Part shown: positions 15,734 through 48,257 of the stretch, in pieces
Layout of the letters: every line of letters starts with the position of its first letter
Position numbering within the stretch: the first letter of the stretch is position 1
Virus record (IMG/VR): IMGVR_UViG_3300046336_000146
From: an uncultured virus (IMG/VR IMGVR_UViG_3300046336_000146)
Lineage: Duplodnaviria; Heunggongvirae; Uroviricota; Caudoviricetes
Strand: one strand, 5' to 3'
DNA length: 64,000 nt
Program-made: the position numbers and the translations under genes
Notes under the pieces: model-generated
Seen by the model: only the letters and a program-made list of their open reading frames with translations
Database searches by the model: none
What the model was told of the DNA's origin: nothing

Positions 15734-18700
15734 TTATTTTTTTGATTCCGTATCGAACATCAGTGATGCAAAGTTGAAGTTATCTATATAATGCTTATTA
15801 AAGAATTCGAAACTGGTCCTAGTTCTATCTATATTGACAATTTTAAAATACTCTTTTAACCCTGGCAGAGATTTATATAACCATGCCTGTCTTTCACTGT
15901 ACCCTCTGTATGTACCTCTTGTAATTATTTCTCCACTTGATAAATCTCCTATATCTAAAATGTTTTGTATTTGACTTAGTCCTGTAGTAGGAGATTCCAA
16001 GAAACTAAAAGCTTGTCCAGGAAGCCCTGTTGATTGGGATGTTGTTTCCACTGCTAGTCTGTACGTCATGTAAGCTAAGAACTCTTTTGTGTAGTCATCG
16101 TCATCATCATCTGCCAAACCTTTAAATAATAATGCAATAGTGGCTAGAGAAGTAGTTATTAATATATCAGCTAAAGTCCTTTTTAAAGAAGTTTGTCTCA
16201 TGTTTGTCATTTGTATTTTTAACTCAGCATAAGAAAGGTCTGCGTATTTTTTATCTGTGGTCTTTATTACTTGTTGTTGATTAGCTGGTTTATTTGTATC
16301 TAAAATATAGTATGTATCAACTCCTCCTTCGTTCTTTGTTACCATTTTATATCCTCCGTCGAACTCTTTATATTGCTCTCTCCATATTTTTTTTAAATCT
16401 CCTTTTAAACCTCCTCTTATAAAAGCTCCTAAGAAATTACTTGCTCCTTTATAAGAACCTTCTTCAAATTGATTGGCGTACAAACTTAAGTGCCTGTCTT
16501 TAAATCTTCGTGTGATAGAAGTAATTAAGAACCCTTTATGCAATGCTACAAAACTATAGATAGCGTGGCGCTGTATGTTTGATTTATCCTCTGAGGAAAC
16601 TTGGTTATCAATCTCTTGTTTTACAGTTTGTATTTTTCTTTTTACAAAATTTAGTCTGTCGTTTGCGTAATCCTCTTTCCCGCTAAATGTTTTATAATAT
16701 TCGTCAGACATTTTTGTACCAATAATCTCTCCTTCAGTATCTTTTTCTTGCTCTATGAAATTATACAAATAATTTTCGTTTGTCTTCCAAATATTTTTTG
16801 CCTCGCTTTCAGTTAAAGGGGCTTCGTTTTTAGCCATTTTTATAGCTCTGTTTTCATTTCTCCACTCTGAGTAAGACTGTAATTTCTTTTCTATTACATT
16901 CCCTTTATCATCAGTTACATCTACTACTTTAAAGTCGTGCAATACTGTAAGTAAAGTTTGGGCCGTTAATGGTACATCTCCCATATAATGTGTAAAGAAG
17001 GCGGATTTTGAAATAGCAAGCCCTCTTAGAGCTCTTCCATAGTTTGAATTTTTATATCTTTCGGCGGGGCTTTCTAGTCCAAAAAACTGTAAGAGTGTGT
17101 TTAGCTCTCCTTTGGCCTTTAATGTAGATAGAAATTGTTCTCCAACTGCGTCTTTTACAAGCTTACCTGCTTTTTTAGAAGCTATTTTTGAAGCCTCTTT
17201 GTTTATACGGTCCCCTACAATATTTTCAGAAATAAAGTTGGCACTACCTTGTAAGAATGAAGTAAGAGGCGTTAAAACACTAAACCCTAAATTTACAAGT
17301 CTTACCCAACCTTGGAAATTTTTTATGGTAGGAACAACGTTTACTTTTTCATTAAGCACTCCAAAAAAATTTGTTGATGCTGTTAAAGTCTCTGTTTGTC
17401 CATAAATGTTATACCTAATGAAGTCGTCCGCCATTTTATATGTAGTAGTGGCTTCTCCTTGTTTGTCGCCAAAAGATTCTGCTCTTAACTTTGTTTTAAT
17501 AGCTTCTACTTTACCTAAAGCCTGTACTCTTTGTTTGCGTTTTTCGGCTTCACTTGCTGTTAACATTAGACTATATAATAGTTCATCTGTCACCTCTTCG
17601 GCAGAGTCCAATTTAGAAAATCCAATTTTAGGGACCACTAAAGAGCCTTTTAAAACAGTCTGTAAATTTATATTGTCTATGGACTGTCCATAAATTGCTT
17701 CGTCTTCACGTACTGTAGTAATATCTTTTATTTGTTCTTTTAAATTTTTTATAGAGAAGTTTTTTATCAATTGGTGCTTTCTTGCCATATCTCCTCTTCT
17801 TATCCCTGGCAGTTGATATTTATTAAACTGTTTTGTCATGTTGGCCGATTCAATTGAATCTTCCCAAAATTTCATAGTTAAGTCTAACAGCTCTTTTTCT
17901 TTAGCATTTCTCCCTCCCCCAAATCTTTCTTCAAACTTTTTGTTTTTAAATATTTGTTTTCCAGATGCAACTCTGTAATCCAAGTTTATCATTGGTTTTT
18001 TTGCATCAAACAGCTTTACATATTCAGGATTAAGTCTTTCATTATCCTGCACATCAATTAAAGCGTATGATGGAGTAATAGATAAGTATTTAGAGTTCTC
18101 TATAATTTGAGTAAATTCCGCCTCTGTTCTTGCTTCTGTTAAGTCTCCTACAACTTCTTGAATATTTAATCCTTCAGGTTTTAACTCTTTAAAGTAAGGG
18201 AGCATATAGCTTTCAGCATATTCAATAATATCTTCATATATTTCTATACTACCATTGGAAAAATCTAAACCTTGACTCCTATTATGAAACTTTTCTACCG
18301 ATTTTCTTAGACCTTTTACATGGCCTTTTTTATATTCTATCAATTGTTCTGCCCCTTTAAGTATACGAGACATATTTTGAGAAGTCACATGTCTTAAAAT
18401 AAAATCTAGCCTCTCTTTGTAAACTTCTTCAGAATCTATTTGAGAAATACCTCTATCTTCTATTTGAGCTTTATATGCATCGTTAACCACAGCCTCTGAA
18501 AAAGAGATTTTCTCTTCCTCTGCTTCTTTTTTATAATGTGTTTTTGCTTTTTCGTATAAGACTTCTAGAACCTCTGAGATTTGTTTTACTGTATCTAACT
18601 CACCTCTCCCCATATCTTCATAATCTATCTGGGATGGGTTATTGTAAAATCTAAACTCTTTTAATATGTTTTTTAATTGGTTTCTTTTGGCCTCTATTTC

Positions 18701-21379: not shown

Positions 21380-21398
21380 TTTTTATAATTTTATAATG

Positions 21399-21430
21399 CA
21401 AATATAGACTATCTACATCAATTTTGCAAA
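21399..21430 (-). promoter_or_regulatory. Bacteroidetes sigma-type promoter
   Basis: TTTG (21430-21427), 20-nt spacer, TATATTTG (21406-21399). Confidence 0.7.
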
Positions 21431-21452
21431 TAGTCTATGTTTATTGTTAATT

Positions 21453-24032
21453 TTAAATTCCACAAGATATTTTATTTTCGTCCGTATAAGTAATAATTCC
21501 TTGAGATATCAGTTCGTCTATTTCTTCGTCTGTTACTTCTTGGTCTCTTAAATTCTCACCTTTCAATAAATCTACTCCCACAGCTTCTGCGTATTGACCT
21601 AAAGTTAGATTAGTAACTTGTTCAGAACTCATTTGAGTAAGACTTAACATTTTTGCAATTTCACTCCACACTTCTTTTAACCAATCTACTATACCTCCTT
21701 TTTTAGTCTCTAGTAGTTCGGCCCCTTTACGTCCTGTTAGTTCAGTTAAGATTTCTTCTAGAAGAGCTTCCCCTTTTAGGTTTGGCTGTGTAGATTTAAC
21801 ATAGTCAATGATGTCTTTTATTTCACTATTTTCTTTTGTTAACTCTGCTTTTACTAGTTCAATACCTTTGTTGTAAAGCTTAGGTTTATTTTCTTTTAGC
21901 CAAGAGTTAAATAAATGCGAGAATTCGTGGAGACTTGTCTCGTTTGTCGCTAGGTCTGAATTTAAATACACTTCATTTTTGTAAACAAAACCGTTTACAG
22001 TAGGAGTTATTCCTAAAGCACCTAAATCTTTTTGGAACTGAATTTGTTCTTCTATTGTAATTGCATTTTCATCAAATATTACATATCCATACCCCTCTTT
22101 CTTACCTTTTGTTATAGGTTCCTCCGACATAGGATAACGCATTCCATCAATTCCTTTGCTATATAAAAACTCTGAAACTTTTTTCTCACTAATTAATCGC
22201 TTTTTTAATTCTTGGTACAATTCTTTTCCATTTACATTGTAGTCACTACTACCTAATGTTTTTATCAAAATATCATTTGACACTTGACTATTCCAATCTA
22301 TAAAATTATCATTTAACTTTACTTGGTATTTATATCTTCCGTCTATTGATATATTTTCTTTGTTTTCAACCGCTTCTCTTAAAGTTTCTAACCCTTGTAC
22401 AAAATCCTCACCAAAGAAATTTTCTAAAAATTCTCTTTCATTTAAACTATTATTAATTGTTTCTAAGAACTCGGAATCACTTAATTTGTTATCTATTTTA
22501 TTAGTTACGTAATATTTTGATGCGGTAGAATTAAGTTTTACACCATCTATATTTACTATAGGATTTTGAGAAAAGTAATTAGCAACTCCACTTTCAGATG
22601 TGAAATAAAAACCATAACCAAAAAAAGTTCCAAACCTTTGTCCTATAAAACTTTTATTAAATCTTGAAAATTTAGTATCTGATACGTGGTATGCTAGAAC
22701 TTGCTTTCTAGTTTTTGCATCTACTCCTAACTCTTTTAGTTTGTTAGCTATTTCCTTAGAAGATAGTTGGAATATGTTTTCTGCTAGTCCATTTTCTTTT
22801 AATCTGTCTATAACTTCTTTTTCGGCGAGTTGTCCTTTATTTCCTCCTTTTTTAAATCTTATGTCATTTGTCTCTGTTGAAAATGTTCCTATGTTTTCTT
22901 CCGCAGATTTTATTGAATTTTCATTCCCGTCAAAAACTAAAAACACATCACCTATTAACTCTCGATTTAAGTCCTCAACATCTTGAGTGAAAGCATCTAC
23001 AATATTTTTAGCGTGAACTCCATCTACTTTTTCTACACCAAATTTACCTTCCTTTAGAAATTCCATAGCATCTCTGTTTTTTGCTGTTTTATACCCTGCG
23101 TCTACTTGAAGGTTATTCCAGGCCTCTATATTGCTTTCTCCTTTAGCATTAAACTCTTTAATATTTTTTAAATTAAGAAAAACAGGGTATACTTTTCCCC
23201 TTTTTGAATTTTGAAGTAACTCTATTTCTCTTTCCGCAACATCAAAATCTCTATTACTTCTTGAAGAATCTCTAACATTTTTCCACTTATTAATTTCTTT
23301 GTCTATTTCATCTAAGTACTCTTTAGATAAATTACCTTTAGAATACATTTCTGACAATTTTATATTTGTTGCAAAGTAGGTACCAAATTCCTTTAAACTA
23401 GATTTTTGCCTAACTGAACTTTCTCTATTGAACTCTGTAATTTTACTGTAAGGGCTGCCATGAAACACAATTAAAGGTTCAAGCGTTTTTTCATCTATGA
23501 CTTGACTTACATTATATTTAGTTAAGTACTCAGATAAACTTAACTCTTCCTCCATTATATACTCTTTCACCGCTTTTTCCCAATTACCAAACCAATTTTT
23601 AAAATCTTGGGTCCTAACTTGTAACCATTGTTGTTCATTTAACTTTGTAGGTAACCCAAACGGATTCTCCATAAAAGTTCCATCTGCAATGGCTTTATCT
23701 TTTATGCTTTTTACTTCTTGTGATATATCTGTAACTGCCTCTCCTAACTCAGTATCAACATTATTTTTTTCTTCAATAATTTTAAATAGGGTATCATCAG
23801 TTTCTAAATAACTTCTTAAATTTTTTACATCTTCATACTCTTTTGGTACAAGCAGTTCGTCTGTGCTTTGACCTACTTCCTCTTTTAACTTATTTAATTC
23901 GTCATTTAATTTTTCTATCTCTTGAACAACTATTGTTGCAAGGGCCTCTTTTTCAAGTAACCCTTGGTTTATTAAATTATTATACTCAGCTTCCAATGAT
24001 GGGTAGTGCTCTTTTATACAGTTTAGTGCCAT
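21453..24032 (-). CDS. polyvalent cargo protein: two ART-PolyVal-like ADP-ribosyltransferase domains plus zincin metallopeptidase (MPTase)
   Basis: FKNWFG...PLIVFHGS...GTYFA...VYPVFLN...DGV...IKSA..N.GTF; second YHVS..F..F....G.GFYFT...GIDG..Y...YVIFD; NGFVYKNEVYLN...SLHEFSH...EE. Confidence 0.75.
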   Translation of the reverse strand: MALNCIKEHYPSLEAEYNNLINQGLLEKEALATIVVQEIEKLNDELNKLKEEVGQSTDELLVPKEYEDVKNLRSYLETDDTLFKIIEEKNNVDTELGEAVTDISQEVKSIKDKAIADGTFMENPFGLPTKLNEQQWLQVRTQDFKNWFGNWEKAVKEYIMEEELSLSEYLTKYNVSQVIDEKTLEPLIVFHGSPYSKITEFNRESSVRQKSSLKEFGTYFATNIKLSEMYSKGNLSKEYLDEIDKEINKWKNVRDSSRSNRDFDVAEREIELLQNSKRGKVYPVFLNLKNIKEFNAKGESNIEAWNNLQVDAGYKTAKNRDAMEFLKEGKFGVEKVDGVHAKNIVDAFTQDVEDLNRELIGDVFLVFDGNENSIKSAEENIGTFSTETNDIRFKKGGNKGQLAEKEVIDRLKENGLAENIFQLSSKEIANKLKELGVDAKTRKQVLAYHVSDTKFSRFNKSFIGQRFGTFFGYGFYFTSESGVANYFSQNPIVNIDGVKLNSTASKYYVTNKIDNKLSDSEFLETINNSLNEREFLENFFGEDFVQGLETLREAVENKENISIDGRYKYQVKLNDNFIDWNSQVSNDILIKTLGSSDYNVNGKELYQELKKRLISEKKVSEFLYSKGIDGMRYPMSEEPITKGKKEGYGYVIFDENAITIEEQIQFQKDLGALGITPTVNGFVYKNEVYLNSDLATNETSLHEFSHLFNSWLKENKPKLYNKGIELVKAELTKENSEIKDIIDYVKSTQPNLKGEALLEEILTELTGRKGAELLETKKGGIVDWLKEVWSEIAKMLSLTQMSSEQVTNLTLGQYAEAVGVDLLKGENLRDQEVTDEEIDELISQGIITYTDENKISCGI

Positions 24033-24034
24033 TA

Positions 24035-24268
24035 TTATATGATAAATGTTTTTAATGTTAATTTAACTATCTCTATAATTTCGTAGTCAAAATCGTATTC
24101 AAAGTTGTACTCTTCTCTAAATCTTTTCTTATTAGAAGAACCTCCTTTTATAATTTCCTCTATTTCTTCTGCGTAACTCAAATAGCCATTTACAGCTATA
24201 GCTAGTCTCTTTTTCTTATGCTTACTTAGATAGCCATCTGTTGCTACTTCTAGGCTTCTTACACTCAT
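24035..24268 (-). CDS. hypothetical protein
   Basis: 77 aa with an internal A.DGYLS/A.NGYLS repeat; tight packing. Confidence 0.6.
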   Translation of the reverse strand: MSVRSLEVATDGYLSKHKKKRLAIAVNGYLSYAEEIEEIIKGGSSNKKRFREEYNFEYDFDYEIIEIVKLTLKTFII

Positions 24269-24270
24269 AG

Positions 24271-24858
24271 TTATTGTCTTTCCACAGAAGTAAAGGTTTC
24301 TCCGTTACCTCCTATTCTTAATTCTATATCTCCTGCGGTCCTTGTGGATGTTGTTACCTCCATAGGATTATTAATGTCAAGGCCTTGTATTTTATGTAAT
24401 TCATCCACTTTTAAAGAGAATGTACTATTACTATCCAATTCTTGTCTTATCTCCTCCGCTGTTGGTGGTATTACGTATGGCGCACTTCCTGTGCTGAATG
24501 AAATAGCTTGCACTGGTTGTTGGTAGTTAATCCTAACAGTATAAGCACCTATTGTATTGATGAAAGGGTCACCACCACCATTCACCAAAAGAATACCATC
24601 ATTAATTGTCAAAGTATGATTTGCCTCTTGAGGTTTTATTTTCCAGCCATTTTCTAAGAACGAGTATATAGGTATTTTAGTCCCTTGTGTTGGGTCAATA
24701 TCATCCCCTCCCACCGTTTTAAAGGCGGGAAGAAACTTACTATTATCATCTGTTAAAAACCAATCAACCCAATCACTCCATAACCTTCTTACAGATACAG
24801 AAGTTGTACCTGTAGTCAATGTTATAGTCTTTGTTGTTCCATTAAAAATTGCTCCCAT
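24271..24858 (-). CDS. putative virion structural protein
   Basis: beta-rich 195 aa; its N-terminus resembles that of the 450-aa neighbour (..TKTITL...V.V..LWS..VD.). Confidence 0.65.
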   Translation of the reverse strand: MGAIFNGTTKTITLTTGTTSVSVRRLWSDWVDWFLTDDNSKFLPAFKTVGGDDIDPTQGTKIPIYSFLENGWKIKPQEANHTLTINDGILLVNGGGDPFINTIGAYTVRINYQQPVQAISFSTGSAPYVIPPTAEEIRQELDSNSTFSLKVDELHKIQGLDINNPMEVTTSTRTAGDIELRIGGNGETFTSVERQ

Positions 24859-24860
24859 AA

Positions 24861-26213: not shown

Positions 26214-26218
26214 CGTTA

Positions 26219-28798
26219 TTAATTTATAAAGTTTCTATCTGTTATTTGTGCAATTGGTAAACTTGCGTTGTTTGATTGTAAATTGTAATTTCTAATGTAA
26301 AATGGAACATATCCTGCTTTTGATACAAATATGTCAATTAAAGTAGGTGTTTCGTATGTGTGAATCCAAGTACTACCTGTATTTTGGTCAACTTGGTTTA
26401 ATACGGTTTCTGTTCCCGCTTGGAGTATTACTACGTCTGAACCACTAATAATATTAGTTAGTGTGAGATTAAAAGTGTCTAAAGGATAATTGTAACCTTG
26501 GGCAACTGTAGAACTTACTGTAGTGATGTACAAAGATGTTATTGCTGTTGTATTTGTTACTGTTGTGGTAATTCTAATTTTTAGTTTAACACCTTTTTGA
26601 GCATCAATACCTGTTTCTGCAAATAAGTTTGCTGCTGATAATGTTTTTAAAGTTCCGTAGCCATTACCATCGTTTTTATTTAGTTGGTATTGTAAATTGT
26701 AGTTACCAATTGTACCACCTGCCATAATTGGAGCAGTATTTGCAAAACTCAAATGACCTAATGCAAAATAAGGCATTTCAAATTCAATTGATTGTCCTAT
26801 TGTTGGCATATATAAACCTCCTGCTGATGTAAATATTGGCGTTCCTGCTAAGATATTATAAGATGAAGCTGATAATGGTGTAGATGTTTTTTCATTCATT
26901 AAAACACCTATTCTACCTACTGTTGCTGATGTAAAATAATCAATAAAGTGTGTGCCATAACAAGCAGTTTGCGCTGTTAATGGATGTGTTGCACCAATCC
27001 CTTTTGTAATAGTATTTAACATAGGAGTAGTAGGTGCATCTGCATAATCTCCTGCTGTGTTTTCAATGAATATATTTGTAGAGGAGTTATCTCCAGTCCA
27101 TAAGCCTGTCCTAGTATTTGAAACAAAACATCTTTGTACTTTTACATTATTGGTAGCAGCTCCTGTTGACAATACAAATAAGTACGCACCTCCATTTGTT
27201 GCTCCTAATGATAATGGTGTTGTTCTATTTCCAATATTTCTAAGTTTAATATTTGTACAACCTGCTGCTGCAATATTTAAAACCCCTAAATAAGGATTTA
27301 CATCTGTTAAATTAAAAAAATCTAATCCTGAAAAAATCATATTTGAACAACTAGCTGAGATTTCATGTACGTAACTATTCTGTACGGCAGTTGTAGTAGT
27401 AGTTCCTGTTATTACGTCACAATACGATGTGTTTGTAACATTTATATTGGTACAAGTTGTGAATACCATTCTTCCGTTAATTAATTTAGGACTTGTCCAA
27501 GTACAATCAACTGCTCTAGTTACTGTTGAATTACCTGTCGTGGCGTGTCCTTTCAGTGTCAATGCTGTTTGTCTGTCATTTATAAATGTAAACCCGTTTA
27601 TATCTGTTAATGAGTTAGTATAGTTACCTGTTGCAGCTAAGTTTGCTCTAGTCCAATGACAATTTGTAAATGTGCCACCTGCAAAACATAACGACATTAA
27701 TAATGCAAATTGAGATTGTGCTGCTGATTGTCCTACACCTACATTAGTCCAAGTCATTGGAGCAGCAATCTCTGAAACTAAGACTTGCTCAAATGTTCCA
27801 CTATTACTAATATTTACAGAATATGCTTGACTAAATGACCAATACCAAGCTGAGTGACATTTATCAATTTCAATTACCCCTCCACCTGTTGTGGTAAAAT
27901 CATATCTTGTGGCTAAAGTTGCATTTGGTGCGGAATTCAATGAAGCACCACTTGCACCTCTAGTTGTATTAATAAACAAAATATTTGGCAATACTATCTT
28001 TAAACCTGCGGGTGGTGTATATCCTGCATTTGCAGTACCATTGTGACCAATTCTTAATAATCCTGTTCCTGAAATCCAACAAACTTTTGCACGTATGTCT
28101 GTACCAACTGCTGTTTGCGAACCTGCACAAGGGTATAATTCATATTGTCCTGTACCGACTCCTGTTTCGATATATACGCCTGGATGTATAATTACAGCAT
28201 TCCAACCTGGTAATTGTATTTGTTGGTTGGCAACTCCTGATGTAGTTCCTACATCATACCATTCTCCTGTTACTCTAAACGTTCCCAATCGTGGTACTGT
28301 CATTGTTGCTGTTTCTGAACCTATGACTTCAATCCAACCAACTGTATCTGCACCTGTAGCATTTGCACCAATTCCTGTTAAGGCTCCTGATGTAAAATTA
28401 CCCCCTACCTTATTCTTTACTTTTATAAATCCTGACGTTGGCATAGCTGAACCTGCTGACGTTGGCGATACGTTAACTGCCGACATTACAGTAAGTACTG
28501 TTGCGGTGACTCCACCTTGCGATATTGTTGCGCCAATTGCAGGAACGTTTCCTGTACCACTATTAAAAGGAATAAGTCTGACTTTTGTTCCATCAACGTG
28601 TACTTCTCCTCCTAATGTAGCAGAAATATTTACTGTATCTAAACTTCCTTGTGCAGTACTATGATTTAAACAATATCTAGTATCAGTATCAATTGTTAAT
28701 TTACCACCATTGATGTTATATACATCTAATGTTGCAATTGCACTACCTCCTGTTAATGTCTCGTAATTTGTGGGTGTTGTAATCGTAAATGTTGCGAT
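26219..28798 (-). CDS. putative tail spike / beta-helix structural protein (about 859 aa, non-canonical ATC start)
   Basis: frame stays open 104 codons upstream of ATG28486 to ATC GCA ACA TTT ACG (M-A-T-F-T); AGAAAGGAGG lies 6 nt upstream. Confidence 0.7.
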   Translation of the reverse strand: MATFTITTPTNYETLTGGSAIATLDVYNINGGKLTIDTDTRYCLNHSTAQGSLDTVNISATLGGEVHVDGTKVRLIPFNSGTGNVPAIGATISQGGVTATVLTVMSAVNVSPTSAGSAMPTSGFIKVKNKVGGNFTSGALTGIGANATGADTVGWIEVIGSETATMTVPRLGTFRVTGEWYDVGTTSGVANQQIQLPGWNAVIIHPGVYIETGVGTGQYELYPCAGSQTAVGTDIRAKVCWISGTGLLRIGHNGTANAGYTPPAGLKIVLPNILFINTTRGASGASLNSAPNATLATRYDFTTTGGGVIEIDKCHSAWYWSFSQAYSVNISNSGTFEQVLVSEIAAPMTWTNVGVGQSAAQSQFALLMSLCFAGGTFTNCHWTRANLAATGNYTNSLTDINGFTFINDRQTALTLKGHATTGNSTVTRAVDCTWTSPKLINGRMVFTTCTNINVTNTSYCDVITGTTTTTAVQNSYVHEISASCSNMIFSGLDFFNLTDVNPYLGVLNIAAAGCTNIKLRNIGNRTTPLSLGATNGGAYLFVLSTGAATNNVKVQRCFVSNTRTGLWTGDNSSTNIFIENTAGDYADAPTTPMLNTITKGIGATHPLTAQTACYGTHFIDYFTSATVGRIGVLMNEKTSTPLSASSYNILAGTPIFTSAGGLYMPTIGQSIEFEMPYFALGHLSFANTAPIMAGGTIGNYNLQYQLNKNDGNGYGTLKTLSAANLFAETGIDAQKGVKLKIRITTTVTNTTAITSLYITTVSSTVAQGYNYPLDTFNLTLTNIISGSDVVILQAGTETVLNQVDQNTGSTWIHTYETPTLIDIFVSKAGYVPFYIRNYNLQSNNASLPIAQITDRNFIN

Positions 28799-28804
28799 AA
28801 TTTG

Positions 28805-28814
28805 CCTCCTTTCT
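28805..28814 (-). promoter_or_regulatory. strong Shine-Dalgarno sequence AGAAAGGAGG
   Basis: + strand CCTCCTTTCT; 6-nt spacing to ATC28798. Confidence 0.65.
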
Positions 28815-29188
28815 TATTTAATTTCTTTTGCTGTCTTGTAATTTATTTTTACAGATGTTGTTAGATTATCCTTTCCTCTTTGTAAGTCAAAAGAGTCTGG
28901 CAACAATCGGTTTTCTATTGTATCAATTACTTTACTATTACTTTTTAATATTTCATCTTTAATTGTCTCAAAAAATGTTTTAAAGTCTTCGTTCTTTGTA
29001 ACAACCTCTATCTCTGGAAATTCAAAATTTTTTAAGAATTTAGTTAAAGTATCTAACTTTTTACTTAAAACACCTTCCATATCAGAGTTTTTTTCTGATA
29101 TAGCTTTAACCACTTCTCTTAATTCTTGTAATATTTGGTTATGTCTGCTTTCTAACAATAACTCCTCAAACTCTCTCTCTTCTTCCAT
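28814..29188 (-). CDS. hypothetical coiled-coil protein
   Basis: 124-aa ORF. Confidence 0.7.
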   Translation of the reverse strand: MEEEREFEELLLESRHNQILQELREVVKAISEKNSDMEGVLSKKLDTLTKFLKNFEFPEIEVVTKNEDFKTFFETIKDEILKSNSKVIDTIENRLLPDSFDLQRGKDNLTTSVKINYKTAKEIK

Positions 29189-29193
29189 CTGTG

Positions 29194-29619
29194 TTATTTA
29201 CAATTAATTAACTCCATTAATTTTTTATATTTATCTTTTATAGCTGCCTGTTTATTCTTACTCTCAACAGGATTTTTAGTGTTGACTAAAGTTTTTGGTG
29301 CTATAAAATCTATCTTGATTTGAGGTAGTTGTATTTTATCTAGTGACTGTAATAACTTCTCTTGAAGTTTGTTTTGAAAGTTATTCTCAGATTGTACATC
29401 TTCTTGATAAGTTTCAACAACTGTTAGTTTTTTATCTTCCTGTACTTTCTGTTTAGGTGCAAATTCTTTCGAATATATGTTTTTATATACATTTAAAGCG
29501 TCTTCTATTGATAGAACAGGTACATTAAAAATCTGTTTGAATAGTTGAGAGGGATTACCTACTGCATCTAACACTTTATTGATTTTTCCGTTTTTTGCTT
29601 TCTCTATTTTACAACTCAT
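29194..29619 (-). CDS. small cargo-associated protein with Cys at both termini
   Basis: MSCK...ELINCK; N-terminal G.PS.LF motif shared with the 699-aa protein. Confidence 0.7.
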   Translation of the reverse strand: MSCKIEKAKNGKINKVLDAVGNPSQLFKQIFNVPVLSIEDALNVYKNIYSKEFAPKQKVQEDKKLTVVETYQEDVQSENNFQNKLQEKLLQSLDKIQLPQIKIDFIAPKTLVNTKNPVESKNKQAAIKDKYKKLMELINCK

Positions 29620-29638
29620 TGTTTTATTTTTTAAATAT

Positions 29639-29674
29639 AAAAATCCAACCTCCTTATTTATTGAAGATTGGATT
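29639..29674 (-). terminator. terminator-like hairpin overlapped by a promoter
   Basis: 12-bp stem AATCCAATCTTC/GGAGGTTGGATT (with GU pairs) followed by T's. Confidence 0.55.
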
Positions 29675-29675
29675 A

Positions 29676-29707
29676 CAAAAATAGGTTTTTAATATGATAT
29701 AAACAAA
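29676..29707 (-). promoter_or_regulatory. Bacteroidetes sigma-type promoter
   Basis: TTTG (29707-29704), 20-nt spacer, TATTTTTG (29683-29676). Confidence 0.7.
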
Positions 29708-29728
29708 TAGTTTATGATAAATGTTAAG

Positions 29729-31828
29729 TTACGCACATTGAAAATTATCTGCTAAGTCTTCTGTTTTTGCTAAAGTTTTTATTTTTACTTCGGACTTTTC
29801 TTCTTGCTTTAAATCAAAATCTTTTGTTTGAGGGGCCGAAGGGTTCATTTCGTAAAAGTTTGGGTCATTGTTTTTCTCTATTTTTGTATAATATCCTTGC
29901 TCTTGTTGCTCGTACAATTCTTCTGCCACTTTCAAGAATTTAGCAGTCTCTTGTGGCGCATAAAAACTTTCTTCATCTATGATATCAACTGCTGTTTTTG
30001 GGGCCTGTACTGTTTCTATATTATTTACAGCCTCTATTCTCTTATCTTGGACCGTTTTTTGATAAAATTCTTTTTGCGGTTTAAGGTTTGGCATATCTTT
30101 ACTTAACAATGAATAGTCTGCTATCTCTTTTGAAAATTTTTTATTATCTTGAATATAAGCTTTTACTATCTCTAAAGTTATTAAGTCATCTGATACTAAC
30201 TCTATACCGCTATCTGTTATTTTAAATTGTCTGTTGAATTCAGTAGGGGTTTTAAGTTTTTCTGCCGCGAAATCTGCTATAAAATCTCCCTTTAAATACT
30301 CTACATCTGTTTCTATGTTAGTTTGTATTACTCTTGTGGAAGGATTTGACGTATAGCCAAAATAATCTTTATACAATTGATACTCAGGGATAGCTAAATT
30401 TTTATTTTTTTGAATCTGTCTTAACTCTTCTTCAGATACTTTGTTTATCTGATGAAAAATGTTAGGCTCCCCCGTCTTTACTAAAGATAGCTCATCAAAC
30501 AACTCTTGCTCTGACATTGTTGTTTTAAGATAAACATAGGATCTATTAGAAGGTAGTTCCGTAGGAAATGTTTGAGGCTCTCTAACAAATCCAAGAGCAT
30601 CTTCAAGAGCTTCTCTGGTCCTTGTAGAAGGGTATTCTAAATAATCTAATAGTGTTGAGAAATCTCCCCTTTCTAAACCTTCTAGGTCCATTCCAAAGTT
30701 TTTAAAAGACTTTATCAGACGATTTTCTATTTGAATAGTGTCTACCATAGGATGAGCATTAACTACTGCTCCCACCGCTCTTAAAATTTCATTTGTTGGA
30801 GGTTTAATAGCTTTTTCAAAAAACATTTTAGTCTTTTGCGGAACACCTTTCTCATCTAAGACAGGAATCTTATTCATACCCTCTTCTTTGGCCAACTTTT
30901 CTAGTCTCAAAGGATTTTCTCTTTTGTATTGGCCAAGTATGTTTAATTTAGGACTTCTAAAATCAAAGTCAGGGTTAAATTTTATTTGTGGAATTTCAAA
31001 CTCTTCTGTATTTTTTAGTTTGTCTACCGTTTCTCTCGCTCTTGCTAAAACTTCTACATCTGTCAATAAAGTATTGATTTCATCTCTAGAGTATATTTTT
31101 TCTAACTTTTTTACGTCGGGATTGAAAATACCATCTTTATAAAACATTCCATAAAGTAGTTTATATAGCTGTGTAGAATTCTCTATTCCAGTTATTTGTA
31201 AATTAATTAGATGTGTTTTTTCTACAGTAGAAAGTGGTGAAAGCTCACTATATCTGTTCTCTACATAATCTAATAATATTTTTGGTAATACTTCCCCATT
31301 TTCATCAAACGTTTCCGGAAAAGGTCTTACTGTTCTTTTATCTTGTGTTAGTCCTATATTGTACAAACTATTCCATATCCTATCAGCATCTTCTGTTCTT
31401 TTTGTGTCTGTGTAAAGCGTGTTATTTTCAGAGATGAGTTTTTTGGCGGTGTAATAATACAAATACTTTCCATAACCCTTCCCTCTTTCTTCTTCATTTA
31501 CTAGAGAAGATTTTATCTTAAAGCCGTCTTTGTAAGGAGTTACTTGGATGCGTCCTACCTTTTTTCTCCCTTCATAAATATGGAAAGTTCTTATTTTGCC
31601 AACAAAAGTCTCCTTGAATTTTATAGCTTCAGGGAAAGAAGGTATTCTTTTTATATAACTTTGCATCATAGGAGAAACCACGTCTCTAATGAAAGTTGGT
31701 GTTTGAGAAAGTATAAATAAATTATTTGCTTCCTCTTGTCCCACTTTTTCTCTTAACTCTTTAAATAGTAAAGACTCTGCTCCGTTTGGAGCAAAGTGCT
31801 TACCGTCTTTTATTGTACACTTAGACAT
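29729..31828 (-). CDS. cargo protein with GNAT acetyltransferase domain, 699 aa
   Basis: SSLVNEEERGKGYGKYLY (acetyl-CoA motif A) and TEDADRIW; N-terminal APNGAESLLF; Cys only at residue 4 and the penultimate residue. Confidence 0.75.
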   Translation of the reverse strand: MSKCTIKDGKHFAPNGAESLLFKELREKVGQEEANNLFILSQTPTFIRDVVSPMMQSYIKRIPSFPEAIKFKETFVGKIRTFHIYEGRKKVGRIQVTPYKDGFKIKSSLVNEEERGKGYGKYLYYYTAKKLISENNTLYTDTKRTEDADRIWNSLYNIGLTQDKRTVRPFPETFDENGEVLPKILLDYVENRYSELSPLSTVEKTHLINLQITGIENSTQLYKLLYGMFYKDGIFNPDVKKLEKIYSRDEINTLLTDVEVLARARETVDKLKNTEEFEIPQIKFNPDFDFRSPKLNILGQYKRENPLRLEKLAKEEGMNKIPVLDEKGVPQKTKMFFEKAIKPPTNEILRAVGAVVNAHPMVDTIQIENRLIKSFKNFGMDLEGLERGDFSTLLDYLEYPSTRTREALEDALGFVREPQTFPTELPSNRSYVYLKTTMSEQELFDELSLVKTGEPNIFHQINKVSEEELRQIQKNKNLAIPEYQLYKDYFGYTSNPSTRVIQTNIETDVEYLKGDFIADFAAEKLKTPTEFNRQFKITDSGIELVSDDLITLEIVKAYIQDNKKFSKEIADYSLLSKDMPNLKPQKEFYQKTVQDKRIEAVNNIETVQAPKTAVDIIDEESFYAPQETAKFLKVAEELYEQQEQGYYTKIEKNNDPNFYEMNPSAPQTKDFDLKQEEKSEVKIKTLAKTEDLADNFQCA

Positions 31829-31847
31829 TAATTTTTAATTTTTTGTA

Positions 31848-34800
31848 TTAACATTCTGAATCATTTGCTGTATCGTCAAGTTCTTTATTTGCTTGATATT
31901 TAGCTTCCATTATAGGTTGTGCTCTAGACATTAAGCTATTGAAGATATCATTACCATATCTGTCTGTTGTTATGTAACCCCATAATCCATTTAGTTTGTA
32001 ATATGTAGATTGTTTTCCTCCAAAGTCTTCCTCTATATAAGATGGTAAATTCTCTGCCTTTATCTTAACTTGACCTATAGGTGTCATCTCTACTGTAGGT
32101 TTACTTGTTTGAGTCGATGAAGGTTTTGTTACAGCTGGTTTTGGAGACATATCCTCAATAGCTTTCTTTATATAACCTGCGTCTGATAATATGGTCTGTT
32201 TTTCTTCTTCGTCTTCTAGTTGAATAACATACTCTTCTATACTCAATCTACTTTTAAATATTTTTGTAGCTATAACATCTAAATCTTTCTCGGAAACTAA
32301 TTCCTCTTCTGTCTCAATATCTTCTCCAGCCTCTTCGAAATTTAAGGGGGTGAATTTTGACAATTCTTTTTTATCTTCATCTATTTCTTCAGAGTCCGAT
32401 ATTTTACTATCTTTTTTTTCTTTAGGTGCTGAAGTAGGTGTTGGTGCATCTTCCAAAACCTCAATTTCAATTACTTCTGACTCTCCTACCTTTCTCTCAA
32501 AGGTAGTAATACCCAATTTTTGAATAGTAATAATATCTGATTTAACAAAAGGAAGTGCTTTTAAATTGCTTTTTTGATTAATTAAAACATTGTACAATTT
32601 CTTATTATTTTTTGCCAAAGTCTTTAACTGTACGTCTGATATGTTAAATTCAAATGTATGTGTGTTCTTTTTAAAAGTTCTTGTAATACTTGTTTTAGGT
32701 GTAGATACAATCGTACTTGCCTGTTTTTCTGAGGGACTAGAAACATCCTCATTTTTTTGCTTGGAAGCAGTTTTATTTTTAGACTTTTTTTCATAACCTT
32801 TACTGACATCATCTTCGGCCTTTTTTTGTGTTAAAGGTTTAGGGTCAGGCTTGTTTAAGTACTCTAAATCTTTAAGATTGAAATTGAACTTTTGGCTCGG
32901 TAAAGATATAACTAAATTTTCTAAATCCAATGCAATCTTTACATCTTTTTTTAAATTTTCTAGTTTGTAATCTTTACTTGCTAGTTGTTCTGCTGTAATA
33001 AACTCTTGATTAGCCTCTAATCTTTGTTCAATTTCTTCTAAAACTGTTTCGTCTAAAGAAGTTAAATTGTATTCTTTTGGTGCGATGCCGTTCTCTAATA
33101 ACAAATTATTTACTTCCGTTACCTTTTGAGCATCTGTTGTGGCTGTATTGTTTAAAATATTGTATAACTCTTCTGTTCGTGGCGCACTTACTTTATTTAA
33201 CTGTATAGGAAAAGCAATTAACTGTTTACCTCTTTTTATAACTATAAACGGGATATTTTTTCCTTTGTTTTTATCTGATAGTTTTTTAAGAAAACTTTTT
33301 CTTACTTTCTTTTCATCCACTTTTTCGTTTAAAGTTAATTTTCCGTCGGTAATATAACCTGTAGTAACTACATTTTCTAAACCTTTATCTGTAATTTCTT
33401 GGTGCTTAATCTTGCCCTCTTGGTCCAAACTAAGTGTAGGATTTCCAAGTTGTACATATTTTACCTTAGTTGTGGCCACTGTTGTAGATATGTCGTTTTT
33501 AAGAGCTTCTCCTGCAACATCTCTCAAGTTAACTATTCCTATACTGTCTGCTGCTATTGCACCACCTTCTCTTATAGCATTAGTAAGTCCTTTAACTACT
33601 CCGTAATTTTCTCCATTCTTTCTAAGATATATTACTACTTGATTTGCTAATTCCTGAGCGGTTAATTTTTGACTTAATAATTTTTGATTGTACTCATTAT
33701 TTACGTCTACATATAATTCAATTAAATCTTCTGCGTCAAGGTTGTTACTGTCCCCTGTTATGTTACTATCTGTAAAATCAGAAGGTATTGGACTCCATTC
33801 TCCATTCTCATCTATTTCATATACGTTAGGAAAAGACCAAGAGGTCAAAGAAGTTATAGTTTTTATACCTGCAATACTGTCAAAATCTTTTTTGCTAATT
33901 CTTATTCTGCTTCTTTCTTCTATGGTGATTTCTTTTTCTACTCCTTCGCTAGTAAACTTAATTGTAGTACCTGGTTTTAAATTATTAACATCATCAATAG
34001 AAATAGCAGTCTTTTTTACTCTTATGTTTTCGGCCCCCATTCTGTACAACAGACTAGCAGGTCTCATATGAGTAATTTCATACTCTCCTCCTTTTAATCT
34101 TTTTATAGTAACAGGAAAATTTGTATTTATACTTAAGTCGGCCACAAAAGCTTTATCAAAAGGTTTGTCCTCCCCTTGAAAAACTTCTTCTATGTTTGGG
34201 GTATCTACAGTGTTTTGTTGTTCAACTTCAGTTCTTAATTGGGCCAAGTTATCTAACAAATCAGCTAAAGATTGGTTTCCTTCTGCTAGATTGTCATATA
34301 TTCTCCATTGAGATAATTTTTCTTTTAAGTCTTCATACTCGGATAAAAGGTCTCTATCTTTTTGAGAAATTAAGTCGGTATCAAAAGAAGTTTGAATTTC
34401 AAAATTACGAACTATAGGATTGTTCTTTAATTCATTATACCTGTCAACATCTTTTTGGTCTGGTCTATTTTTAACCGCTTCATCTACATCTTGAGTTCCG
34501 ACAAAAGAAGTTTTAAATAGACTTAGTATATCCTTTATTCTAGCCTCTAGAGCTTCAACTGTCGATACTGTAGGTTCTGCTTTTTCTTCTTCTTTTTTAA
34601 CAGGTGTGTCATCTTTAGGATTAAGAAGGTTTTCTATTTCTTTTAGTTCTTCGTCTATCTCCTCTTGACGTTGTATGTCCTCTGTCTCTGCAAACTCTTT
34701 CTCTAAAGCTTCTTTCTTTTCTTGTAAGAACTCTTCGTCTCTGAGTCCTTTTAGGTTGTATTCTGCAGTCTCTTTATCTTTTAACTGTTCCTCTGTAAGC

Positions 34801-37562
34801 TCTCCTTCTACTTCAGACAGCTCTTTTAATATTCTTTTACTTTTAACCCTGCTGTCTTCTTGAAGGTCTGCCGAAAAAGACATATCATGAGAGTTTCTGA
34901 TTCTATTTAAAGTCTTGAAAAATTCTGATGTGTGTTCGTCCATCTTAATTTCTCCTTTGGTGTATTTTTGGTAAGTTCCAGCAAAAGGGTTTCCTGTAGC
35001 TAATTTTGGTTTAAACTTACCAGAAGCTATTATTTTTATAGCTGTATTGTGGTCCAACAAGGCTTGTTGTGCTCTTTTATAAGTATTAATATGCTCTTCA
35101 GCCACTTGTGCTGATACAGGATTTATACTTTTAAGAGTTTTGTATGACTCTTCTAAATCGTTTATATTTTTTTCAACTGTCAATAAATCACTTACAGAGA
35201 TGAACTCATCTACTATAGGTGCTCCATCAATTCCTTTAAAAGATTCGGATAGTTTTTTATTGGTAGTTATTTTATTTGCTATTCCTTCTAATTCTTTTGT
35301 TACCTCTTGTTTTCTTTTTTCAAGTTCTATGACTTCTCTCTGTAAAGTTGGAAGTTGAGATTCTCTCCCCTCTTTTGTAGAAATTTGCTCTAACTGTATT
35401 TTCTTTTGTAGTGCTTCTGACCTTGATTCTAGTTTACTGTGCTCTTTTGATAAACTGTTAAATTGGTCCCTAGTTTCCTTATCTAAAGATTGCAATTCCT
35501 CATTTCTTCTTATGGCATCCGCTTTATCTTTTCCCATCAAAGCACTAAAATCGTTCAAGGCAGTATCCATTATTTTTTTAGAAGACTCCCCTTGTAATAT
35601 AGTGTAAGTTAAGGCTCTGTTTACATCATGAGCTTCAAACTTAGAACCGTAGATTTTTCCTTGGGTTCCTATAATAGAGTTTGCAAAAGTTTTTGCCGAC
35701 TTATAATTAGCAATAAATTCTTTATATCCTTTTTTAATTTCTTCTTTCTCTTCTTCACTTACTTCTGTGGTGTCAATCATGTTTAATCCATGCTTCTCCA
35801 TTTGAGAAAGTCCTCCTGCTCCGTATAAAGTATTATCATACATTTCAGCTAAAGCTATCATAGAGTCATTTTGAGCCAATTTTGCTCCAACAACGTCTCT
35901 TTTAGTCATTGCTACTTGTGCTCTATCTTCTGCTTCCATAACTTTGGCCATGGTCATCATTCTTCCTGCATTAATATCAGAAACAAATGTTTTCATGGTT
36001 ACGTTAGCGGCATTTAAACCTTTTGCAACAATTTTTTCTTGTTGCTCGGCCATTCTGCTAAACTCTGAAAACTCGCCTGTTGCTGTTCCTCCTACAATAC
36101 CAACAATACCTCCTATACCGATTTCTTTCCATCCTTCCTTGGTGCCATATTGTTCTTGCATAGCTTTCCAAGCATCATCAGAGAAAGTAGCAACCTTGTT
36201 CAAATATTTAGGGTCATACTGTCTTTCTATCCAGTTACTAGCTGTTTTTGTTGCTACTCCTTGTAGGCCTTCTTCAAAAAGGCCTTCTCTAACAAATGGT
36301 GAAGTAGCTTTATATAAAAATCCTGCTCCTTTTTGCCAAGCCTTTGTTTCAATACCTTTAAACACAAGTTCTCCTCCTAAACCTGCAGTCTTTTCTACTC
36401 CTATTCCGAATAGTTTTTGATTTACAGTTTTAGTTAGGTTTGAGATAGGGTTTTTTATATTAAACATTCCTCCTAGCATGGCTAAGTTAGAAACTCCTAG
36501 TATGGCCATATTTGCAGCAAAAACATTATTTGCGGCTCCTTCTATCTTGTCTATTATATCAGCAGACTCTTCTGCTGTAGGTGGTCTACCATTTAACTCC
36601 TCAAAATCGTTGTAAAAGTTTTCTAATGCCTCTTTCTTAAAATGAAAAGCTTCAATACTGGCTTCATTTCCTGAAGACGTTCCTATAAAACGGGCAGTGT
36701 TTATTACTTCTCCTGTTTTTGCTAAAGTATTTGCTAACCCTTTGCTCATTTTTCCTGCAGTTACTGCATTGTCTAAGGCTTCGTAAACAAATCCTTTATA
36801 GTTGGCCAAACCTTCAGCTACCTTTTCAGTTCCTAAAAAGGCTTTACCAAATCTTCCTGCACTTACTGCCTCTTCTCCAACTCTTACCGCCGTAGAAGCT
36901 CCTTTCAAAAGACGACCCATTTGACCTACTTTAGCTCCCCACATTCCCATTCTTGCAGGAATAGAAGCTCCTCCTGTAGCTGCAGCCCATATTGCTTCCG
37001 AAGTTATTGTACCTAATGTAAAAGAAAGACCATTAAGAATATCGTTTGCTATGAAGTTGGCAGGGTTTTCAATTAAACTTCCAAAAAAGCCTGCCTCTTT
37101 TTCCTGTTTGGTATAGTAATTTGGAAGTTCATAATTTAATTTTGTATTCCAATCATCTACTGTTTTTGTGAAAGAGTTGTCAAATACAGAGTTAAAATTA
37201 CCCGTTTTTGCCCACTCCCCTAGTCCATAGACAAATCCTGCAGTGTTTCCTAAAACAACCGCCCCTAAATTATTTCCTGCTTTTGTTGCACCATTTAGAA
37301 CTTGCTCCCACCCTGATTGACTTTGAGCTAATCTTTCATTATTGTCTGTACCTGGTACATAACTTTTATACATAGATACTTTTTGACCTGAATCTAAGGT
37401 CTTATATCGCATCTCAGGTCGGTCATTTGAAAACTTTTCAAAACTAGGTTTTGTAGAGGAAGTAGGTAAAGGAAGAGGATTAGTTAATGTTTGACTTCCT
37501 CCTTTAGTAGTTGATTCTAAACCTCTTCTTATGTTATCTATTAAATTTTTAGTATCTTCCAT
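31848..37562 (-). CDS. giant internal virion (cargo/ejection channel) protein, 1904 aa
   Basis: N-terminal Gly/Ala-rich hydrophobic helices (EG..EEG.Q, IGIGGIVGIVGG), long coiled coils; only Cys is the last residue. Confidence 0.75.
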   Translation of the reverse strand: MEDTKNLIDNIRRGLESTTKGGSQTLTNPLPLPTSSTKPSFEKFSNDRPEMRYKTLDSGQKVSMYKSYVPGTDNNERLAQSQSGWEQVLNGATKAGNNLGAVVLGNTAGFVYGLGEWAKTGNFNSVFDNSFTKTVDDWNTKLNYELPNYYTKQEKEAGFFGSLIENPANFIANDILNGLSFTLGTITSEAIWAAATGGASIPARMGMWGAKVGQMGRLLKGASTAVRVGEEAVSAGRFGKAFLGTEKVAEGLANYKGFVYEALDNAVTAGKMSKGLANTLAKTGEVINTARFIGTSSGNEASIEAFHFKKEALENFYNDFEELNGRPPTAEESADIIDKIEGAANNVFAANMAILGVSNLAMLGGMFNIKNPISNLTKTVNQKLFGIGVEKTAGLGGELVFKGIETKAWQKGAGFLYKATSPFVREGLFEEGLQGVATKTASNWIERQYDPKYLNKVATFSDDAWKAMQEQYGTKEGWKEIGIGGIVGIVGGTATGEFSEFSRMAEQQEKIVAKGLNAANVTMKTFVSDINAGRMMTMAKVMEAEDRAQVAMTKRDVVGAKLAQNDSMIALAEMYDNTLYGAGGLSQMEKHGLNMIDTTEVSEEEKEEIKKGYKEFIANYKSAKTFANSIIGTQGKIYGSKFEAHDVNRALTYTILQGESSKKIMDTALNDFSALMGKDKADAIRRNEELQSLDKETRDQFNSLSKEHSKLESRSEALQKKIQLEQISTKEGRESQLPTLQREVIELEKRKQEVTKELEGIANKITTNKKLSESFKGIDGAPIVDEFISVSDLLTVEKNINDLEESYKTLKSINPVSAQVAEEHINTYKRAQQALLDHNTAIKIIASGKFKPKLATGNPFAGTYQKYTKGEIKMDEHTSEFFKTLNRIRNSHDMSFSADLQEDSRVKSKRILKELSEVEGELTEEQLKDKETAEYNLKGLRDEEFLQEKKEALEKEFAETEDIQRQEEIDEELKEIENLLNPKDDTPVKKEEEKAEPTVSTVEALEARIKDILSLFKTSFVGTQDVDEAVKNRPDQKDVDRYNELKNNPIVRNFEIQTSFDTDLISQKDRDLLSEYEDLKEKLSQWRIYDNLAEGNQSLADLLDNLAQLRTEVEQQNTVDTPNIEEVFQGEDKPFDKAFVADLSINTNFPVTIKRLKGGEYEITHMRPASLLYRMGAENIRVKKTAISIDDVNNLKPGTTIKFTSEGVEKEITIEERSRIRISKKDFDSIAGIKTITSLTSWSFPNVYEIDENGEWSPIPSDFTDSNITGDSNNLDAEDLIELYVDVNNEYNQKLLSQKLTAQELANQVVIYLRKNGENYGVVKGLTNAIREGGAIAADSIGIVNLRDVAGEALKNDISTTVATTKVKYVQLGNPTLSLDQEGKIKHQEITDKGLENVVTTGYITDGKLTLNEKVDEKKVRKSFLKKLSDKNKGKNIPFIVIKRGKQLIAFPIQLNKVSAPRTEELYNILNNTATTDAQKVTEVNNLLLENGIAPKEYNLTSLDETVLEEIEQRLEANQEFITAEQLASKDYKLENLKKDVKIALDLENLVISLPSQKFNFNLKDLEYLNKPDPKPLTQKKAEDDVSKGYEKKSKNKTASKQKNEDVSSPSEKQASTIVSTPKTSITRTFKKNTHTFEFNISDVQLKTLAKNNKKLYNVLINQKSNLKALPFVKSDIITIQKLGITTFERKVGESEVIEIEVLEDAPTPTSAPKEKKDSKISDSEEIDEDKKELSKFTPLNFEEAGEDIETEEELVSEKDLDVIATKIFKSRLSIEEYVIQLEDEEEKQTILSDAGYIKKAIEDMSPKPAVTKPSSTQTSKPTVEMTPIGQVKIKAENLPSYIEEDFGGKQSTYYKLNGLWGYITTDRYGNDIFNSLMSRAQPIMEAKYQANKELDDTANDSEC

Positions 37563-37566
37563 TTAT

Positions 37567-40389: not shown

Positions 40390-40400
40390 AGTTATTATTA

Positions 40401-48245: not shown

Positions 48246-48257
48246 TATTTTTTATTT

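Follow-up and report, generated by a model that had tools for sequence, protein, structure and literature searches.

The nearest described parallel to the proteins considered here is a single disulfide in a cyanophage. In the cryo-electron microscopy structure of cyanopodophage A4, the C-terminal helix of gp27 lies in a cleft of gp26 and a Cys1715-Cys5 disulfide joins the two; in the account of the main text, this contact belongs to the pentameric outer layer of the pre-ejectosome (PNAS 2025, PMC12002296). The sole cysteine (Cys) of A-4L gp27, which is encoded by the upstream gene, is residue 1715 of 1717 amino acids (aa), and that of gp26 is residue 5 of 1114. The subject of this text is a stretch of 64,000 nucleotides (the window) from an uncultured virus, IMG/VR record IMGVR_UViG_3300046336_000146, in which five proteins of 1904, 699, 141, 859 and 1881 aa, named here in order of transcription, carry cysteines at the ends that face one another. 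The A4 pair resembles them, as adjacent ejection genes on the same strand with an upstream Cys three residues from the C-end and a downstream Cys at residue 5. It differs in extent: A4 has a single link between two proteins, treated in the main text as a structural detail only, whereas the window would have four links among five proteins, enzyme modules included. The original prediction was unaware of any account of a system like this; the bond between A4 gp27 Cys1715 and gp26 Cys5 is one that is in print (PMC12002296, main text).

Other known systems share some of the proteins or some of the logic. The RNA polymerase cargo of the Crassvirales (gp47-gp50-gp49 in ΦcrAss001; gp67-gp66-gp65 in phi14:2) has homologous first and last proteins and obeys the same terminal-Cys rule, with three members against five in the window lineage. 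Its middle member is a polymerase with a DFDxD motif (DFDID in phi14:2 gp66, DFDVD in gp50); a motif scan found no DFDxD two-barrel polymerase motif in the five window proteins or in three other large open reading frames (ORFs) of the window. Fused polyproteins (p-crAssphage gp44, crAss002 gp33 and Fpv1 gp33) and unsplit relatives of the window proteins (P0124, P0132 and P0147) contain the same domains in the same order, joined by peptide bonds and without junction Cys, in contrast to the window, where the genes are separate and a Cys pair stands at each break. Polyvalent phage proteins, the subject of Iyer et al. 2017, are said to hold effector domains such as ART-PolyVal inside one giant injected polypeptide; the window has an ART-PolyVal domain (E 6.1e-14), and the polypeptide is split into 141 + 859 + 1881 aa where P0132 and P0147 have one chain. 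Coliphage N4 ejects a giant virion RNA polymerase (vRNAP), with N-terminal, catalytic and C-terminal parts, along with other ejection proteins, gp51 and gp52; unlike the chain genes of the window, this vRNAP is a single 3,500-residue polypeptide (main text of PMC13434306).

The terminal-Cys pattern of the window is real and conserved, and it probably reflects an ejection chain coupled by disulfides. What is new here is a chain with five members, its 141-aa adapter and the positions of the splits; it would be a variant, with several links, of a bond that has been seen one time, in a cyanophage.

Cysteines at facing ends and their conservation

The 42 translated ORFs of the window, each of at least 100 aa, contain 170 Cys in 19,028 residues (0.89%). 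In the five proteins together there are 8 in 5,484 residues, every one no more than 5 residues from a terminus that faces a neighbour (Table 1, below); the two outer termini, at the N-end of the 1904-aa protein and the C-end of the 1881-aa protein, have none. The eight terminal-only Cys had been counted by eye in the original prediction, and every count was reproduced on translation. At the window frequency of 0.89%, the probability that the 5,434 inner residues are Cys-free is 8e-22. That all 8 of 8 facing termini are tagged with a Cys and both outer termini untagged has a chance probability of 1.2e-11, and random placement of 8 Cys would put all of them within the 40 facing positions with probability 8e-18.

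One way to dismiss such a pattern is to attribute it to chance, to composition or to the way in which ORFs were called. Cys is scarce in cargo proteins generally, and the N-terminal assignments hinge on the start codon picked, here the most upstream one. The upstream start codons are credible because Met1 and Cys3 are invariant across aligned relatives, in alignments of 36 and of 30 sequences. Seeming exceptions turn into the canonical MSC start when TTG or GTG is used for initiation or an over-extended annotation is trimmed: the 664-aa ORFs of loci L024 and L029 read 'MSCNII...' from an upstream TTG or GTG, and crAss002 gp33, annotated with a start 32 codons too early, has an internal 'MSCTP'. 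With chance probabilities between 1e-11 and 1e-22 the artefact reading has almost nothing left to it; it is refuted by the counts in homologues and loci that follow.

Conservation of the Cys in homologous proteins and loci, which the original prediction had put forward as a check, is extensive. Protein A, the first member, has 428 homologues, of which the best 120 were examined: in 119 of these 120 a Cys falls among the final 10 residues, for the most part as the last or the one before it, and 116 of the 120, at lengths of 1,065-2,313 residues, have no other; the exception, P0037, has no Cys. Protein B, the 699-aa type, has exactly two Cys in 39 of 40 homologues (517-1019 aa), no further in than position 4 from the N-end and position 3 from the C-end; an ART domain is inserted in 5 of the 39, and the odd one out is N-terminally truncated. 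For protein Z, the last member, a Cys at position 3-6 is present in 44 of 46 homologues and is the sole Cys in 42; one exception has a non-Met start and looks truncated, and the other, P0160, starts with Met and has 0 Cys. The facing C- and N-terminal Cys are retained down to 22-30% identity.

Related loci were found by querying with the alignment of 36 relatives of the last protein (M1 and C3 invariant). Single queries with the 699-, 1881- or 1904-aa protein found no related locus, the 859-aa protein led to 7 distant loci that were left out of the survey, megablast of window positions 29000-38000 found no relatives, and tblastn of the 699-aa protein against phages gave no match. The alignment led to 80 IMG/VR loci, dereplicated to 40 by shared 6-mers; the last protein is 5'-truncated in 2 of the 40, and 38 were counted. 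All 38 complete Z proteins have an N-terminal Cys and none has a C-terminal one; 31 of these proteins contain no other Cys. At 33 of the 38 loci the fetched DNA includes an upstream partner whose C-end is tagged with a Cys; of the remaining five, three have no upstream DNA, and L046 and L073 have no partner on the same strand, the strand that was examined. Chains that end in a first protein tagged at the C-end only have 2 members at 7 loci, 3 members at 21 and 4 members at 2, the counts of middle members being partly by construction, since the walk along the chain selected C-tagged ORFs. The surveyed chain proteins have 126 terminal and 19 internal Cys in 150,284 residues, against 1.38% Cys in a control set of 208 other complete ORFs from the same loci, of which 16 have an N-tag, 17 a C-tag and 3 both.

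The same rule (first protein tagged at the C-end only, middle proteins at both ends, last protein at the N-end only) holds in cultured and reference phages: in phi4:1 (gp038 Cys1957; gp037 Cys4 and Cys516; gp035 Cys3), in ΦcrAss001 (gp47 Cys2339; gp50 Cys5 and Cys2404; gp49 Cys5), in phi14:2 (gp67 Cys1797; gp66, the crystallised polymerase, Cys3 and Cys2179; gp65 Cys3), and also in cr85_1, cr112_1, DAC15, csAssE-Sib, p-crAssphage, the Flavobacterium phage Fpv1 and the cyanophage Lbo-JY46 of Leptolyngbya. As judged from these comparisons, the pattern is a conserved family trait. In ΦcrAss001, gp47 is encoded on the strand opposite to gp50 and gp49, so the signal resides at the level of protein; translational coupling or another nucleotide signal is ruled out by the same arrangement.

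The sequence around the Cys is itself conserved. The N-terminal ~50 residues form a domain with consensus MxCxIxxNxxGxIxxVLxxxGxESxLF...ALxxYKN, in which M1, C3 and S24 are invariant among 30 sequences, and the tail of the preceding protein has the motif ...YYSKxExxxIxxxFxC, its Cys invariant in the alignment. Tail and leader types differ from junction to junction, a variety that would allow ordered pairing.

Gene fusions, gene splits and the order of the chain

Relatives in which the genes are fused lack the pair of facing Cys. Fpv1 gp33 is protein A fused to the polymerase in 4,401 aa; at 1999-3227 it aligns to phi14:2 gp66, and its single Cys stands at -2. In p-crAssphage gp44 (4070 aa) the polymerase is fused to the last protein, with regions matching gp50/gp66 and gp49/gp65; it has Cys3 and no C-terminal Cys. 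XAI97381 of Lbo-JY46 (2748 aa, counted as a fusion) has only Cys4, and each of the unsplit relatives P0124 (2670 aa), P0132 (2691 aa) and P0147 (2900 aa) contains just one Cys, which is N-terminal.

The window shows the converse, and the points of division can be mapped. Along P0124, P0132 and P0147 the 859-aa protein is matched first and the 1881-aa protein after it: residues 405-825 of the first correspond to 358-822 of P0124, residues 34-1881 of the second to 822-2670, and on P0124 and P0132 the break between them maps to a single, contiguous point. Unsplit relatives have no counterpart of the final 33 residues of the 859-aa protein or of the initial 34 of the 1881-aa protein; both stretches are additions, and both carry a Cys. 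In unsplit relatives such as P0147, the counterpart of the 141-aa protein is the first ~51 residues; its residues 1-50 are 62% identical to residues 1-50 of a 2125-aa protein of locus L028, and the protein matches phrog_37651 at positions 1-77. From this match, the 141-aa protein is the N-terminal domain of the ancestral last protein joined to a tail module that ends in Cys. Other proteins, of 600-736 aa, finish in this tail module too, and there are further adapters elsewhere, 81-149 aa long, in which either end has one Cys. Because the 141-, 859- and 1881-aa proteins are collinear with unsplit relatives, the order 1904-699-141-859-1881 rests on homology as well as on gene order, and the chain order that the original prediction had read from the genes is borne out.

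A divided middle gene was also found. In locus L023 the B-type protein is split into 477 and 607 aa, with a Cys tag at either end of each half. The presence of the Cys at splits, their absence from fusions and their persistence in distant homologues uphold the claim that facing Cys act as a pair; the covariation with fusion and fission is the strongest evidence for it that the comparison offers.

The junction between the 141- and 859-aa genes of the window is occupied by four ORFs that are not chain members. The list of five tagged genes in the original prediction was right as to the members and omitted these four, of 124, 755, 450 and 195 aa. Locus L023 (2035-6953) carries the same cassette, again at a chain junction, where it divides the B-type protein; its 450-aa ORF is 83% identical, and the last protein of the locus only 26%. 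The cassette may be mobile or exchanged. As to whether it brings the flanking tag sequences with it, the tails that precede it, of the 141-aa protein here and of the 477-aa protein in L023, bear only a weak likeness (E 8e-5 in a two-sequence search). Free swapping of effector modules had been proposed for the chain as well; the effector module looks instead to have been split out of a polyvalent protein.

The likely nature of the link

The explanation that accounts best for these observations, and seems a good deal likelier than not to be right, is that the five proteins are cargo of a crAss-like phage, packed in the virion, ejected, and coupled end to end in the order 1904-699-141-859-1881 by disulfides. 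The C-terminal tail of each protein would dock on the N-terminal region of the next, and the contact would be locked by a single disulfide that joins a Cys among its final 1-3 residues to a partner Cys at position 3-5. All other Cys would have been purged from the chain and from other cargo proteins, so that only end-to-end links could form; the purge fits a need for unique thiols. As each link would lie 1-5 residues from an end, the product would stay nearly linear, a pseudo-polyprotein able to thread the tail channel unfolded, after which the reducing cytoplasm would uncouple the parts. That the chain is ordered and runs end to end is well supported by comparison with relatives; disulfide chemistry in this phage, tail threading and reductive release are our inference. 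The main text of Bayfield et al. 2023 describes ΦcrAss001 cargo as packed in the virion and thought to be ejected partly unfolded, as it must be to clear constrictions of <50 Å, and reports disulfides in the tail and portal vertex of the virion (PMC10172136).

A disulfide is one of several things that two Cys could make. The facing termini might dock in gene order with the Cys bridging a metal ion or forming some other reversible contact. Covariation with fusion and fission shows pairing and not chemistry, and the gut hosts are anaerobes. One Cys per terminus, however, supplies two ligands only, the alignments show no conserved His, Asp or second Cys beside the tags, the purge of every other Cys better suits thiol cross-reactivity, and the bond in the main-text description of the A4 structure is a disulfide (PMC12002296); a metal bridge or its like is accordingly unlikely. 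A somewhat smaller chance attaches to the idea that the terminal Cys of each protein anchors it to some third component, whether a portal, capsid-interior or tail protein or the DNA, and not to the neighbouring cargo. The tail and portal-vertex proteins of ΦcrAss001 are rich in disulfides, as the main text has it (PMC10172136), and a few cargo proteins have a lone terminal Cys whose partner is not evident. Against this, the outer termini of the first and last proteins are never Cys-tagged, both Cys come and go together at gene breaks, and the A4 bond, as described, joins the two ejection proteins (PMC12002296).

Covalent processing or ligation would be another use of the Cys: thioester joining, trans-splicing to a true polyprotein, or the remnant of self-cleavage. 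Some relatives do encode one polyprotein, for which the preprint version of Drobysheva et al. presumes cleavage (10.1101/2020.03.07.982082). The five proteins nevertheless contain no Hint or intein family at Pfam E <= 0.01; the C-terminal Cys is the last or next-to-last residue and not the first residue of an intein half of ~100 aa, and the N-terminal Cys, at 3-6, is not the N-terminal residue that ligation chemistry requires. Such processing is highly improbable. Split inteins, which belong to genes broken in two whose end sequences rejoin the halves after translation, are a known example of such joining; they yield a peptide bond, where the expected product in the window is a reducible disulfide, and they are ruled out by the lack of a Hint/intein domain and by Cys positions unfit for intein halves. 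A lipoprotein-type N-terminal Cys is likewise ruled out, with no leader resembling a signal peptide and the Cys at residue 3-5.

Several points weigh against the disulfide-coupled chain itself. Sequence comparison finds no homology between A4 gp27 or gp26 and the A or Z families (best BLAST E 0.035; negative scores with hidden Markov models (HMMs), built for A from 40 of the 120 listed sequences and for Z from the 36-relative alignment), so A4 is an analogue and not an orthologue. In the ΦcrAss001 maps the cargo is unresolved, according to the main text (PMC10172136), and an end-to-end bond has yet to be seen in any crAss-like phage. The hosts of gut crassviruses are anaerobes, which bears on where and when oxidation would take place. 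Among the proteins, IAS virus gp056 lacks the N-terminal Cys and has 9 internal ones, in a record with ambiguous bases; some Steigviridae polymerases have 1-3 internal Cys; and three proteins have a lone Cys and no evident partner, namely p-crAssphage gp47 (L016 5588-8161, 857 aa; at -2), crAss002 gp30 (L017 6393-8066, 557 aa; at -8) and Lbo-JY46 XAI97385 (L015 13685-15709, 674 aa; Cys5). In the locus survey, the walk that took C-tagged ORFs passed over untagged ones (780, 450, 306, 585 and 347 aa).

Structure prediction gave no help in either direction. A complex prediction that paired the last 80 aa of the 699-aa protein with the first 70 of the 141-aa protein scored 0.02 and 0.01 against a mark of 0.32, with the fold of the partner itself uncertain. 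The AlphaFold2 model of residues 40-900 of the 1904-aa protein is all-helical and of low confidence (predicted local distance difference test, pLDDT, 66.5; predicted template modelling score, pTM, 0.42), and a Foldseek search of the PDB with this low-confidence model, aimed at a fold match to A4 gp27, returned no match at E <= 0.001.

Genomic setting and wider meaning

The window is a low-GC (29-37% guanine plus cytosine) phage region with a long minus-strand block of structural genes, in which crAss-type tail ring and muzzle genes adjoin the cargo module: CrAss_Ring_2 is matched at Pfam E 9.9e-29, CrAss_Ring_1 weakly at E 6.9e-5, under the Pfam cut-off, and a 2146-aa muzzle-like protein matches phrog_37948 at E = 0. 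Among cultured phages its closest relatives are phi4:1 and phi17:2 of Cellulophaga, with protein identities of 25-30%.

Table 1. Features of the window: coordinates, strand, length and cysteines
Feature	Coordinates	Strand	Length (aa)	Cysteines and remarks
Chain member 1 (A)	31848..37562	-	1904	sole Cys is the last residue (...DSEC), codon 31851-31853
Chain member 2 (B)	29729..31828	-	699	Cys4 (MSKC..., codon 31817-31819); Cys698 (...FQCA, codon 29735-29737)
Chain member 3, adapter	29194..29619	-	141	Cys3 (codon 29611-29613); Cys140 (codon 29200-29202)
Chain member 4	21453..24032	-	859	Cys5 (codon 24018-24020); Cys857 (codon 21462-21464)
Chain member 5 (Z)	15734..21379	-	1881	sole Cys is Cys3 (codon 21371-21373)
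Intervening cassette, not chain members	24271..29188	-		junction between members 3 and 4
Cassette ORF	28814-29188	-	124	0
Cassette ORF	26219-28486	-	755	12, internal
Cassette ORF	24861-26213	-	450	0
Cassette ORF	24271-24858	-	195	0
Upstream cargo-like ORF	37567-40434	-	955	0; TTG start
ORF	40499-41398	-	299	Cys16, Cys17
Upstream cargo-like ORF	41411-44029	-	872	0
Upstream cargo-like ORF	44019-45200	-	393	0
Upstream cargo-like ORF	45205-47337	-	710	0
Muzzle-like protein, seemingly split	47337-54698	-	2146 and 302	...ICN (Cys at -2); MACLC (Cys3, Cys5)
Receiver-domain response regulator	12247-12684	-		
Endonuclease VII family protein	11064-11630	+	188	17

Family searches place the first and last chain proteins among known cargo. 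The 1904-aa protein matches phrog_32390 (E 1.5e-114) and is the orthologue of ΦcrAss001 gp47, phi14:2 gp67 and phi4:1 gp038; BLAST gives E 3.7e-17 in the N-terminal part against gp47, an 'RNA-polymerase subunit', and E 6e-8 against gp67, and the A-family HMM matches gp47 at 6e-27. The 1881-aa protein matches phrog_37651 (E 4.6e-120) and is related to ΦcrAss001 gp49, with weak BLAST matches (E 3e-6 and 2e-5), and to phi4:1 gp035. It also contains an acidic run, ADDDDD, at residues 1757-1762, nearly invariant in the 36 relatives, and most relatives of this last chain protein (P0121-P0166; window 15734-15760) have a C-tail rich in Lys and acidic residues (...ESKK, ...EEEE, ...EDKEKE). The effector assignments of the original prediction fared unevenly. 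In the 859-aa protein the ART-PolyVal domain PF18760 is present at the E value given above, and the peptidase is weak, an HExxH motif at residue 702 being its sole basis; the GNAT module is a weak match in the 699-aa protein, under the Pfam cut-off (E 0.006).

The four upstream cargo-like ORFs had been called Cys-free, correctly in every case, although the one given as 940 aa has 955 from its TTG start. This ORF matches phrog_32131 (profile length 974) at profile positions 26-181. At corresponding positions phi4:1 has gp039 (974 aa), gp040 (895 aa) and gp041 (739 aa), each with 0 Cys and annotated as a virion protein detected by mass spectrometry. The cassette ORFs (124, 755, 450 and 195 aa) have no family matches in Pfam or PHROG, and a protein atlas comparison of the 755-aa ORF was uninformative (best score 0.78).

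The muzzle-like protein seems to be split as well: the 2146-aa ORF corresponds to phrog_37948 1-1786 and the next ORF, of 302 aa, to 2052-2288, where the phi4:1 counterpart is a single 2289-aa protein. A Cys stands on either side of this break, and both ORFs are Cys-rich. Ahead of the structural genes, a response-regulator protein with a receiver domain (Pfam E 6.1e-19) is encoded on the opposite strand inside a block of plus-strand ORFs. The Cys content of the endonuclease VII family protein indicates that the phage does not shun Cys outside its cargo. No thioredoxin or sulfhydryl oxidase family was found by Pfam among the 42 window ORFs; p-crAssphage (L016 30978-32245, minus strand) has an annotated thioredoxin and a truncated thioredoxin near its cargo module.

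A terminal-cysteine rule for crAss-like phages was not found stated in the main texts searched. The disulfides discussed in the main text of Bayfield et al. 2023 concern tail and portal proteins only, with terminal Cys unmentioned (PMC10172136); the preprint version of Drobysheva et al. (10.1101/2020.03.07.982082) contains 0 matches for cysteine or disulfide; a term search of the epsilon-crAss paper did not find the rule stated; and the main text of the 2026 N4 paper, with 0 occurrences of 'disulfide' or 'cysteine', notes that crassvirus ejection proteins remain structurally unresolved and that structures are still needed (PMC13434306).

A wider and more tentative proposition, to which we would give somewhat less than an even chance, is that Crassvirales and related podophages of Bacteroidota and cyanobacteria use a portable 'terminal-cysteine coupler', in which short C-terminal tails and N-terminal leaders, each with the sole Cys at its outer end, take the place of a peptide bond. 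On this view the linear order of a giant injected polyprotein could survive splitting, fusion or the entry of mobile gene cassettes; matching types of tail and leader would dictate how the parts follow one another in a chain of ~0.6 MDa, and the reducing cytoplasm of the host would be the release switch.

Crassviruses are the most abundant phages of the human gut. For the packing and delivery of their giant virion RNA polymerase and its accompanying cargo, the rule offers a concrete and cheaply testable model, that of a reducible pseudo-polyprotein ejected in fixed order. It would explain why the parts are fused in some lineages and separate proteins in others, why thousands of residues are kept Cys-free, and how enzyme modules such as ADP-ribosyltransferase are carried along. 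The rule is of use in annotation too, where it puts start codons right and predicts which ORFs encode ejected cargo.

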